This document shows, one piece after another, positions 61,138 to 63,384 of a stretch of DNA of 64,000 nucleotides. How positions within the stretch are numbered: position 1 is the stretch's first letter; each line of letters starts with the position of its first letter. Under the pieces are notes generated by a model. It had not been told where the DNA came from, ran no database searches, and was given only the letters and a program-made list of their open reading frames with translations. The translations under genes were made by a program, and so were the position numbers. Source of the DNA: Polyangiaceae bacterium (lineage in GTDB: Bacteria; Myxococcota_A; Polyangia; Polyangiales; Polyangiaceae); NCBI GenBank assembly GCA_965222375.1, contig CBDCTZ010000014.1:1280001-1344000 (forward strand), given 5' to 3'.

Positions 61138-63384
61138 GTGGCAACGCGACGCAAGAGCACGCCGCACCGCTCCTGGACCCTCGCTGACCTGCGCAAAGCG
61201 GCCCAGGCGCACAAAGGCCGCTGCGTCAGTCGCGCCTACGCGGGCCTAAACGAAGCCCACAAGTGGCGCTGCGCCAAGGGCCACGTGTTCGAGATGCGCG
61301 CCATCGCCGTCGTGAAGAAGAACGCCTGGTGCCCGGCTTGCTCCGGACGTCGTCCTCACAGCATCGAATCGATGCAGGCTCTAGCCAAGCAGCGCGGTGG
61401 CAAGTGCCTCTCGAAGCGTTACGAGAGCGTCGACAAGAAGCTGCGCTGGAAGTGCGTGGAAGGACACGTGTGGGAAGCGATCCCGTATTCGGTGCTCGGC
61501 GGTGCATGGTGCCCGGCATGCCGTTCCGGGCGCTTGCCTCCGGCGCAGATGCTGACGCAGATGCGAAAGACCGCACGACAGCGCGGGGGAAAGTGTCTCG
61601 CCGACAAGTACGTTCGCGCCAAGCACCCCTACGAGTGGCAGTGCCGGCAAGGCCATCGTTGGACCCGGGACTGGGACGGGATCCAGAGCGGCGCCTGGTG
61701 CCCCAAGTGTCGAGGCCGCTTGCCCCCGAAAGAAGCGTTGGCGCAACTGCAAGCCATTGCGAAGCAACACGGAGGTGCGTGCCTCTCCAAGCGCTACGTG
61801 GGCGCCACTAGCGATCTGCAGTGGCGCTGCGGCAAAGGTCATCGTTGGCGCACCTCAGCAAGCAACGTGCGCTCTGGGCGTTGGTGTCCCAAGTGTGCGG
61901 GCAACACGCCAGTCACGCTCCGCGAGGCTCGGCAGCTCGCTCGCAGTCGCGGCGGCAAGTGTCTCGCCAAGAAGATCGCCAGCAGCACCAAGCCCGTACG
62001 CTGGCAGTGCGAGCATGGCCATACCTGGAGCGCGCCCACCTCGCGACTGAAGTCGGGCAGCTGGTGCCCACAGTGCGCCAAGGCACCACGCTACTCCCTG
62101 GAGGACATGCAGGCCCTCGCCGAAAAGCGGGGTGGCCAGTGCGTGTCTCGCCGCTTTCGATCGGTGAATCACCACCTCACCTGGCGCTGCGGCGAGGGAC
62201 ACGAATGGCGCGCAACGGGGTCACAGCTGCTCGGCTCCGGCACCTGGTGCCCGGTGTGCTGGGGCCGCCAATTGGGAACCATCCAGCAAATGCGCAAGCT
62301 CGCCAAAGCCCGCGGCGGCAAATGTCTTTCGACCCACTACACCAACAGCACCACCAAGCTCCGTTGGCGCTGCGCCGACGGGCACGAATTCCTCAAGGAG
62401 CCAGTCAGCGTCAATCGAGGAGCCTGGTGTCCGTACTGTCGCAGGCGCGGTGCGAAGGGGATCGGGGCGTTCATTCTCGCGGAGCACAAGCGCCTCGCGA
62501 AGCAACGCGGCGGCCAATGTCTCTCGGACGCCTATCACCTCGCGTCCAGGCCACTGCGCTTTCGCTGCCAACAAGGCCACGAGTTTTCGGCGCCATCCGC
62601 CACGGTGATGATGGGCGCCTGGTGCCCGGAGTGCGCCCACACCCGCAGGCCCAAGCTTGCCGAGATCCAAGCGCTCGCAAAGCAGCGCGGCGGCAAATGC
62701 GAGTCAAAGCGCTACGTCAACAGCCTGGAGCGCTTGCGCTTTGTTTGCGAGCACGGACATCGCTGGGAAACTCGCCTCGCGAACATCCGCAGCGGACACT
62801 GGTGCCCCAAGTGCGCCCGCACCAAGCGACGCGGCAAAGCCGAGCCGCTCTCCATCGAGGACATGCAACTCGAGGCCGAAGAGCGCGGCGGCGTCTGCCT
62901 GTCGCAGGAATACACCTCGCAACGTGACTACCTCGAGTGGCGCTGCGGCATCGGCCACGAATGGGAAGCACAGGCCGGAAGCGTCTACGCCGGAAGCTGG
63001 TGCCCCCATTGCTCCGGACGCCAACCGCTCACCCTCGAAGCCATGCAGCGCTCCGCCCAATCCCGCGGCGGACGCTGCGTGTCCAAAGCCTACCGCGGCG
63101 TGCGCGTCAAGCTCACCTGGGAGTGCGCATCCGGCCACCGCTGGCGCGCAACCCCCCAGTCCCACCGCTCCGGCAGCTGGTGCCCCCGCTGCCTTGAGAC
63201 CCCACCAGACGCAGGCATCGCCCGAGTCAGCGCACTCGCCCGCCGCCGCGGCGGCGTATGCCTCTCGGCGAGTCACCCCTACGCATCCAAGCCCTTGCGC
63301 TGGAAGTGCGCACGCGGCCACGTCTGGCGAGCCCTGGAATCAACCGTCCAATCCGGCAAATGGTGCCCGCGTTGCGTGGATTGA
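61138..63384 (+). CDS. Tandem zinc-ribbon array protein (12 modules)
   Basis: 12 copies of AxxRGGxC(L/V)SxxY..LxWxCxxGHx(W/F)..GxWCPxC; GTG start at 61138 inferred. Confidence 0.9.
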   Translation: MATRRKSTPHRSWTLADLRKAAQAHKGRCVSRAYAGLNEAHKWRCAKGHVFEMRAIAVVKKNAWCPACSGRRPHSIESMQALAKQRGGKCLSKRYESVDKKLRWKCVEGHVWEAIPYSVLGGAWCPACRSGRLPPAQMLTQMRKTARQRGGKCLADKYVRAKHPYEWQCRQGHRWTRDWDGIQSGAWCPKCRGRLPPKEALAQLQAIAKQHGGACLSKRYVGATSDLQWRCGKGHRWRTSASNVRSGRWCPKCAGNTPVTLREARQLARSRGGKCLAKKIASSTKPVRWQCEHGHTWSAPTSRLKSGSWCPQCAKAPRYSLEDMQALAEKRGGQCVSRRFRSVNHHLTWRCGEGHEWRATGSQLLGSGTWCPVCWGRQLGTIQQMRKLAKARGGKCLSTHYTNSTTKLRWRCADGHEFLKEPVSVNRGAWCPYCRRRGAKGIGAFILAEHKRLAKQRGGQCLSDAYHLASRPLRFRCQQGHEFSAPSATVMMGAWCPECAHTRRPKLAEIQALAKQRGGKCESKRYVNSLERLRFVCEHGHRWETRLANIRSGHWCPKCARTKRRGKAEPLSIEDMQLEAEERGGVCLSQEYTSQRDYLEWRCGIGHEWEAQAGSVYAGSWCPHCSGRQPLTLEAMQRSAQSRGGRCVSKAYRGVRVKLTWECASGHRWRATPQSHRSGSWCPRCLETPPDAGIARVSALARRRGGVCLSASHPYASKPLRWKCARGHVWRALESTVQSGKWCPRCVD

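Follow-up and report, generated by a model that had tools for sequence, protein, structure and literature searches.

A twelve-module DUF4379 array without a nuclease in a Polyangiaceae bacterium: a candidate tamed DNA-binding protein

We analyzed a stretch of 64,000 nucleotides (nt) from a Polyangiaceae bacterium (assembly GCA_965222375.1, contig CBDCTZ010000014.1, positions 1,280,001 to 1,344,000), which is called the window below. Its contig is referred to as C14. The subject is a gene on the plus strand, 61138..63384 of the window, which translates into 748 amino acids (aa) followed by a single terminal stop. Its product, the array protein, is a chain of zinc modules, which most likely amounts to a DNA-binding protein that has been tamed rather than to a novel type of system. 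Within the stretch that the gene shares with the second copy in the genome, on contig C11, no start codon precedes the GTG at 61138. The homology between the two copies runs from 61093, 45 nt upstream of this GTG, to the stop at 63384, and the C11 copy starts at the same GTG. The paralogous GTG and the boundary of the homology both suggest that 61138 is likely to be the true start of the gene. A longer frame of 868 aa, opening at TTG 60778, was rejected because it was not conserved in the paralog.

The protein was split at each WCPxC, which gave 12 modules of 60-68 aa. They account for 746 of the 748 residues and are followed only by 'VD' and the stop. The protein is very basic (isoelectric point 10.24; R 12%, K 6.7%, C 6.4%), and the net charge is positive in 11 of the modules, module 10 being the sole net acidic one. 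All this is in agreement with the original prediction, made by a model from the DNA letters, which described a very basic protein consisting almost entirely of 12 modules and ending two residues after the last of them. The conserved scaffold that it proposed was strict for CxxGH and WCPxC, both present in 12/12 modules, but less so for WxCxxGH (10/12, with F for W in modules 8 and 9) and for [RHK]GGxC (11/12, with KGRC in module 1). Judged by motif, the C-H-C-C (CHCC) ligand sets of the predicted zinc sites are intact in all 12 modules, 48 ligands altogether. Among 51 two-module rows from the window protein, its paralog and relatives, the CxxxH and CPxC pairs (C38, H42, C57, C60 and their counterparts in the second module) were invariant, which fits the C-H-C-C ligands proposed before, whereas the RGGxC cysteine was only nearly invariant and was replaced by L or V in some relatives. 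The 11 variable segments quoted in the same prediction are all present as written. Pairs of modules share 29-56% identity (40% on average), and for this reason Tandem Repeats Finder reported no module-level DNA repeat in the gene.

The array protein has a Pfam match to PF14311 (DUF4379) that scores 125.6 bits (cut-off 24.5; E 8.5e-37), is spread over 10 stretches and covers only profile positions ~20-56. Through its modules it also matched two PHROGs families, phrog_559 ('HNH endonuclease', E 1.8e-86) and phrog_681 ('endonuclease', E 5.7e-83). Pfam revealed no AP2 domain in it, the NCBIfam search gave nothing meaningful, and PADLOC-DB 2.0 had no family at E <= 0.001 for the array protein or its four nearest neighbours. 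The structure of modules 2-3 was predicted with AlphaFold2 (AF2) from the 51 two-module rows (mean predicted local distance difference test score, pLDDT, 86.4; predicted template modelling score, pTM, 0.54). The predicted module begins with an alpha-helix, a short strand (CLS after RGGxC) and a beta-hairpin with the C-x3-H knuckle. In its second half, the 'variable' segment forms a short helix, and CPxC then starts another helix. In the model, this fold is a treble-clef arrangement. Together with the PF14311 match, it bears out the assignment to DUF4379-type treble-clef modules. Of the predicted viral structures in BFVD, 137 matched the two-module model at E <= 0.001. Some are 'treble clef zinc finger' proteins of giant viruses, and others are phage proteins that bear the names homing endonuclease, Hef-like homing endonuclease and group I intron-associated VSR homing endonuclease. 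CapR homology domain and T5orf172 DNA-binding domain are further names among these matches.

The module type is very common. A protein search covering lengths of 411-1309 aa found at least 1177 relatives of similar length (E <= 0.001 among 8000 candidates scored), of which the best 120 were listed. Nearly all of these 120 are annotated with PF14311 or PF21817 only. We found that most of the 80 relatives that were aligned carry an insert of ~130-140 aa, which is absent from the array protein and falls at its residues 375-377, at the joint of modules 6 and 7. In 16 aligned insert segments, E5, D39, E50, H56, D77, K80 and C84 were invariant. A hidden Markov model (HMM) built from these 16 segments matched 93 of the 120 listed relatives, and the other 27 lack the domain. 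In most of the 93, the nuclease-like domain has 3-8 modules on each side, and it is C-terminal in five. Thus the association of such modules with endonucleases was borne out, whereas the case in which all homologs would have a C-terminal nuclease, and the array protein would be a truncated copy, was not what we observed: the domain is central, and a whole clade lacks it.

The central domain was also modelled with AF2 (pLDDT 90.8, pTM 0.84). Compared with 48,161 chains, the best match of this model was the Vsr endonuclease (1cw0_A; Z 9.6, root-mean-square deviation 3.0, 111 residues aligned), followed by the catalytic domain of the homing endonuclease I-Bth0305I (3r3p_B; Z 8.6, 97/98 residues) and the DUF559-type protein NGO0050 (3hrl_A; Z 8.2). 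ESM Atlas gave AbaSI-like and DUF559 (score 0.90) hits, which are leads only and agree with the structural matches. Foldseek found nothing in the PDB at E <= 0.001, with Vsr at a TM score of only ~0.5. PDB sequence searches, with one relative and with the central-domain profile, were blank. Pfam gave only sub-threshold matches on the 16 segments (DUF2726 in 2/16, best E 5.6e-4; MTES_1575 in 1/16). The matches to Vsr, I-Bth0305I and NGO0050, together with the central position, imply that the family usually takes the form of a homing-type nuclease whose predicted Vsr/EDxHD-like core is flanked on either side by arrayed zinc fingers. As this core is missed by Pfam, the 93 of the 120 listed relatives would be unrecognized putative nucleases, and automatic annotation overlooks the Vsr-like domain in most 'zinc-ribbon domain-containing proteins' of this array type. 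P0006, P0013, P0025, P0042 and others are publicly annotated as 'zinc-ribbon domain-containing protein' or hypothetical. A genome-contig search for related loci gave just two, in Burkholderia (36%) and Arthrobacter (26%). Of 401 genomes sampled from the phylum, two had the nuclease-like domain, and the module pattern was absent from the forward frames at both of these loci. No match to the HMM was found among the open reading frames (ORFs) of 16 relatives' loci.

The nuclease-like-domain HMM had no match in the array protein, which its modules fill; it is nuclease-free, as originally proposed. Nor did any of the 86,636 six-frame ORFs (>=70 aa) of the 10.56-Mb genome match it at E <= 10. The same absence characterizes a myxobacterial clade whose members are 51-92% identical to the array protein and have 9-12 modules in the same order: P0002 (83%), P0003 (66%), P0004 (64%), P0008, P0009, P0011, P0016, P0027, P0010 and an ortholog in the same genus. 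The comparison of module number and order that had been suggested was carried out for six relatives and showed colinear modules. The best match of a module was the corresponding module in 12/12 cases for P0002 and P0003, 11/11 for P0004, 10/11 for P0008 and P0009, and 9/11 for P0011, and module-specific signatures are retained in the alignment of close relatives. The range of 9-12 results from the absence of module 1 and, in P0016, from a loss around modules 5-6, in a protein some of whose modules the module pattern overlooked.

The array protein and its C11 paralog are 92% identical without gaps, with a synonymous divergence (dS) of 0.286-0.288 and a ratio of nonsynonymous to synonymous divergence (dN/dS) of 0.131. 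Against the same-genus ortholog, dS is 1.5 and dN/dS is 0.194. When the columns were separated, dN/dS was 0.047 for the scaffold and 0.181 for the variable columns of the paralog pair, and 0.032 and 0.299 for the ortholog pair. The variable columns have 14% identity between modules of the array protein and 39% for the same module across five relatives, compared with 91% for the scaffold columns. A dN/dS of 0.18-0.30 gives no sign of diversifying selection. Because they are also partly conserved for each module in the relatives, the 'variable' positions appear to be module-specific and moderately constrained rather than evolutionarily hypervariable, so that the word 'hypervariable', used for them before, does not hold. 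Nor is the array protein a truncated copy, since the whole clade is cleanly without the domain at the module 6/7 joint, with the order kept and under purifying selection.

We consider the array protein to be a nuclease-free domesticated DNA-binding array, which would bind without cutting and would be comparable to the CapR and CasPR repressors; we put the probability of this reading at roughly 55%. DNA binding, already anticipated as binding of nucleic acid, is the best interpretation by analogy with the relatives of the modules. The basic charge, the AP2-repeat genes next to the two paralogs and the fusion of such arrays to other effectors (both described below) also speak for this reading. 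The array would have a single long and fixed target site on DNA, or a small number of them, and every module would contact a stretch of its own. Since it would bind DNA but not cut it, it might act by occupancy, as a repressor, silencer or site protector, like CapR and CasPR. The nuclease domain was probably lost in-frame by recombination between flanking modules, and in-frame recombination between repeat modules of this type has been documented in the published account (PMC10448857). A bolder version, which we regard as rather improbable, is that each module of a domesticated locus silencer reads a few base pairs of one long conserved site, and that the short helix between GHxW and WCPxC, together with the residues following the conserved Tyr, follows a recognition rule that could be decoded. 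If it were true, the clade would be a ready-made series for working out the recognition rule, because the relatives keep the module order and sometimes drop whole modules.

Several observations weigh against the array being a domesticated DNA-binding protein, and we begin with those that concern the modules. The two-module model reached a pTM of just 0.54, and its modules may therefore be arranged like beads on a string. Compared with solved structures, the model had no significant match (VIA-align, best Z 4.5; Foldseek against the PDB, none at E <= 0.001, best E 0.1). The weak top rows were mitoribosomal proteins of trypanosomatids (6yxx_E2, Z 4.5; 6sga_Fd; 6hiv_DS). Treble-clef fingers generally bind many kinds of ligands, and it could be argued from both points that the array binds RNA or proteins, or is a zinc-rich scaffold. 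However, matches at Z 4.5 fall under the level that the search tool deems meaningful, and all characterized relatives of the modules, as far as they have been described, either bind DNA (CapR, CasPR) or sit in DNA endonucleases. A function other than reading DNA therefore strikes us as very improbable. The CapR homology domain, PF21817, scored 22.0 bits for the array protein, under the cut-off of 24.2, while relatives pass it strongly (e.g. P0013, 138.6 bits; P0025, 118.9 bits). Because of this score we term the protein CapR-like and do not call it a member of PF21817. Its CHCC ligand set is also unlike the four cysteines of CapR. When the nuclease was masked and nearest neighbours were compared, to see whether nuclease-free forms arose once or many times, all modules were ~45% alike; the nuclease may have been lost here or gained in the other relatives. 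To our knowledge, there is no experiment on, and no DNA-bound structure of, the array protein or any long array.

The remaining points of this kind concern the copies and their distribution. The genome has three paralogous loci, on C14 (that of the window), C11 and C9. Each of them has a 2540-2630-aa protein (SpvB, TcdB_toxin_midN, FG-GAP), a protein of ~560-660 aa, a very large variable protein without Pfam matches, and FGE-sulfatase-like proteins. The array gene lies beyond these cluster genes on the opposite strand. The C9 copy (C9:26830-27053) ends after ~224 nt and is thus a truncated third copy. The ORF after it, at 27251-28906 (L040 14251-15906; 551 aa), has a weak Phage_integrase match (27.5 bits, cut-off 27.1). 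In the same-genus genome G182, the copy on its C14 consists of two overlapping pieces. The distribution is patchy and multi-copy. Only 6 of the 201 genomes of the order match at E <= 1e-20, the source genome included, and within the genus G182 has five matching pieces and G150 none. This is also the pattern of a selfish element.

It might thus be suggested that the gene is a selfish remnant, a homing-endonuclease gene minus its nuclease, which has no host function and either just survives or is propagated by gene conversion or by helpers acting in trans. Besides the patchy distribution and the broken copies, there is a sign of homogenization at the size of the gene. A tract 91% identical between the window (61093-63384) and C11 (C11:617624-619915) has immediate flanks that cannot be aligned, and the array genes of C14 and C11 have the dS of 0.286-0.288 given above, compared with 1.0-1.4 for the paralogous neighbours. 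The AP2-repeat genes of C11 and C9 have a dS of 0.288. The low dS and the unalignable flanks suggest gene conversion, or copying in the manner of a cassette, at a time well after the loci had duplicated. The contexts in other genomes of the order (GmrSD, Mrr, Schlafen/AlbA, Macro and FGE-sulfatase genes) are also rich in restriction, defence and mobile genes. By contrast, both copies and the ortholog are under purifying selection (dN/dS 0.13-0.19), and this holds for scaffold and variable columns taken apart as well. All the zinc ligands are intact, the nuclease-free clade spans 51-92% identity with colinear modules, and the six-frame ORFs of the genome include no such nuclease that could help in trans. 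On this evidence, a remnant of no use to the host seems unlikely.

Another explanation is that the array is a targeting subunit, which brings a separate effector (nuclease, methyltransferase or regulator) to a long site. The same arrays are fused to varied effectors. In addition to the Vsr-like domain of the 93 listed relatives, P0063 has a C-terminal DUF2726, P0082 has 10 modules and a region with further Pfam families, which we take to be those of a methyltransferase, and P0122, the only relative above 1309 aa found in a search for longer proteins, has ~16 modules and a 550-aa tail. These fusions fit the array being a portable targeting device. Response-regulator genes also flank the window copy, which lies between an OmpR-type response regulator (60042-60809, -) and a receiver-only protein (63507-63953, -). 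Genes for AP2-like repeat proteins flank the paralogs. The copies on C11 and C9 are divergent from a 448/456-aa protein of five AP2-like repeats (SRYxGV ... LNFP), and no AP2 gene is present beside the window copy. The Pfam AP2 match of the 448/456-aa protein itself is sub-threshold (E 8.1e-5), and the protein is homologous to neighbours that match AP2 at 49.8 and 94.3 bits. The AP2-like repeat proteins represent another type of nuclease-free repeat protein whose DNA-binding domains derive from homing endonucleases. They adjoin further AP2 proteins of 377 and 784 aa, and a paralog 61% identical lies at C13:267308-268654.

However, the flanks of the two full copies of the genome differ. No conserved operon partner was seen across the loci examined, which also counts against the domesticated array itself. 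The only neighbour common to the window and one same-genus locus is an FGE-sulfatase-like gene (57% identity). When five copies from two genomes were aligned upstream of the gene, no motif was conserved beyond the start region, which is a further point against domestication. We consider a targeting subunit quite unlikely. A link between the array gene and the Tc-toxin-like cluster was considered and dropped: it is not kept in the same-genus genome, where no homolog of the 2540-aa protein was found within 20 kb of the array locus.

Table 1. Positions of the array gene, its modules and the AP2-like repeat genes. Window positions unless a contig is named; residues of the array protein in parentheses.
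Feature	Position	Strand	Basis or remark
Coding sequence, 748-aa zinc-module array protein	61138..63384	+	GTG start, stop 63382-63384; start backed by the GTG of the paralog and by the homology boundary
45-nt leader common to the C11 and C9 copies	61093..61137	+	5' of the leader, the copies are not alignable with the window
Module 1 (aa 1-68); KGRC instead of RGGxC	61138..61341	+	motif split
Module 2 (aa 69-128)	61342..61521	+	motif split; in the two-module structure model
Module 3 (aa 129-191)	61522..61710	+	motif split; in the two-module structure model
Module 4 (aa 192-253)	61711..61896	+	motif split
Module 5 (aa 254-313)	61897..62076	+	motif split
Module 6 (aa 314-374)	62077..62259	+	motif split
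Module 6/7 joint (aa 375-377), without insert	62260..62268	+	site of the ~130-140 aa Vsr/EDxHD-like domain in most distant relatives
Module 7 (aa 375-434)	62260..62439	+	motif split
Module 8 (aa 435-499); longer N-terminal linker RRRGAKGIGAFILAEH, kept in relatives	62440..62634	+	motif split, alignment
Module 9 (aa 500-559)	62635..62814	+	motif split
Module 10 (aa 560-625); only net acidic module	62815..63012	+	motif split, charge
Module 11 (aa 626-685)	63013..63192	+	motif split
Module 12 (aa 686-746), then V, D and stop	63193..63375	+	motif split
AP2-like repeat proteins, 448/456 aa	C11:616073-617419 and C9:25255-26625 (L039 11073-12419, L040 12255-13625)	-	

The minus-strand cluster of the window (43988-51610, 51607-53295, 53298-58109 and 57836-59659, all -) encodes the 2540-aa SpvB/TcdB_toxin_midN/FG-GAP protein (TcB/TcC-like), 562-aa and 1603-aa proteins without Pfam matches, and two FGE-sulfatase-like proteins. 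The large proteins share 74-84% identity across C14, C11 and C9, and the loci diverge strongly in the third protein. An ORF pair adjoining the end of the large cluster (40296-42346, +) has an rve integrase core and AAA_22, and looks like what we take to be an IS21-type transposase pair. Farther away, a 553-aa protein (16613-18274, +) has sigma-70 region 4 and a Ser/Thr protein kinase domain, and there are three more Pkinase proteins (25009-26790, 35364-37832 and one just outside the window). A type IIG restriction-modification enzyme of 970 aa lies 2.4 kb downstream, outside the window (C14:1345778-1348690, -; L041 1778-4690). It is of Eco57I/MmeI type (PADLOC REase_MTase_IIG, E 2.4e-184), and the next genes encode a Ser/Thr kinase and a TPR protein. 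DUF4379 is found elsewhere in the genome as well. A protein on C15 (C15:182595-...; L002 949-3165, open at the locus end) has three full-length N-terminal DUF4379 domains (E 6.7e-17 to 6e-11) and a later part that looks helicase-like by eye, with a 351-aa ORF adjoining, and C16 encodes a single-domain DUF4379 protein of 184 aa.

A selected twelve-module array without a nuclease, with relatives of fixed module order, would be convenient for studying how such modules read DNA and how long a site they cover. It also bears on the taming of homing endonucleases into regulators in cellular genomes, a process so far shown, in the accounts available, only for small phage and satellite proteins (CapR, CasPR).

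The closest known systems are the homing endonucleases that combine CapR-like modules with an EDxHD/Vsr nuclease. In the published description (PMC12350094), CapR/DUF4379/DUF723-like modules of ~60 aa are the DNA-binding part of a large EDxHD/Vsr homing-endonuclease outgroup, and the module type has thousands of UniProt matches. By Pfam and BFVD, these are the same zinc modules as those of the array protein, and a Vsr/EDxHD-like domain is present in 93 of its 120 listed relatives. The enzymes described there have 3-5 modules, a C-terminal nuclease and an intron setting, whereas the array protein has 12 modules, no nuclease, and a place on a myxobacterial chromosome. The cellular relatives differ from them too, as their nuclease is central, with 3-8 modules per side in most, and not C-terminal. 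Judged by its domains, the array protein is outside the homing-endonuclease class, because it has no catalytic domain. The T5orf172 homing endonucleases (PMC10448857) are reported to have repeated CapR/DUF723/DUF4379 modules, whose number is altered by in-frame recombination. Repeated zinc-finger modules of changing number are likewise seen in the relatives with 9-12 modules. As described, however, the T5orf172 enzymes have few modules and a catalytic domain related to T5orf172/GIY-YIG, which the array protein does not have.

CapR of the Vibrio cholerae satellite PLE is a domesticated DNA-binding domain of a homing endonuclease, which represses the capsid operon of phage ICP1. It binds a specific site, and its Cys-to-Ser mutants lose binding (PMC8096241). 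As a nuclease-free derivative of the homing-endonuclease zinc-finger module, it is the precedent for action by binding only. On the published description, CapR is a 15.5-kDa protein with one module of the form CxxC...CxC, encoded by a phage satellite, whereas the array protein has 12 modules of the form C-x3-H...C-x2-C and is not part of a phage satellite. CasPRs are anti-CRISPR repressors with CapR and AP2 domains, and their CapR domains are needed to silence cas genes (bioRxiv 10.64898/2026.02.23.707548). According to that account, they are also nuclease-free, use DNA-binding domains derived from homing endonucleases, and silence through specific sites, some of them with two CapR domains. 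The context is similar as well, since the array gene adjoins AP2-repeat genes at two of the paralogous loci. The CasPRs described are prophage genes of Bacillota in anti-CRISPR (acr) loci with 1-2 CapR domains, whereas the array protein has twelve modules and no AP2. On its domain content it is not a CasPR, because it lacks an AP2 domain.

Transcription activator-like effectors (TALEs) and C2H2 zinc-finger arrays are built from modules in tandem, whose scaffold is fixed and whose surface residues are particular to each module. The array protein is also tandem-modular and probably reads a long site. It is not homologous to them, its ~60-aa modules are 29-56% identical and have no hypervariable residue pair and no known code, and it shows no sign of one module per base or per triplet. 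In the literature that we searched, we came across no long array that lacks a nuclease and is conserved in a lineage of cellular organisms, and no description of the architecture with a nuclease at the centre that the cellular relatives have. By every feature examined, the array protein is a member of the DUF4379 repeat family. Modular DNA reading by such modules and their domestication are already described in the published accounts (PMC10448857, PMC8096241, bioRxiv 10.64898/2026.02.23.707548).

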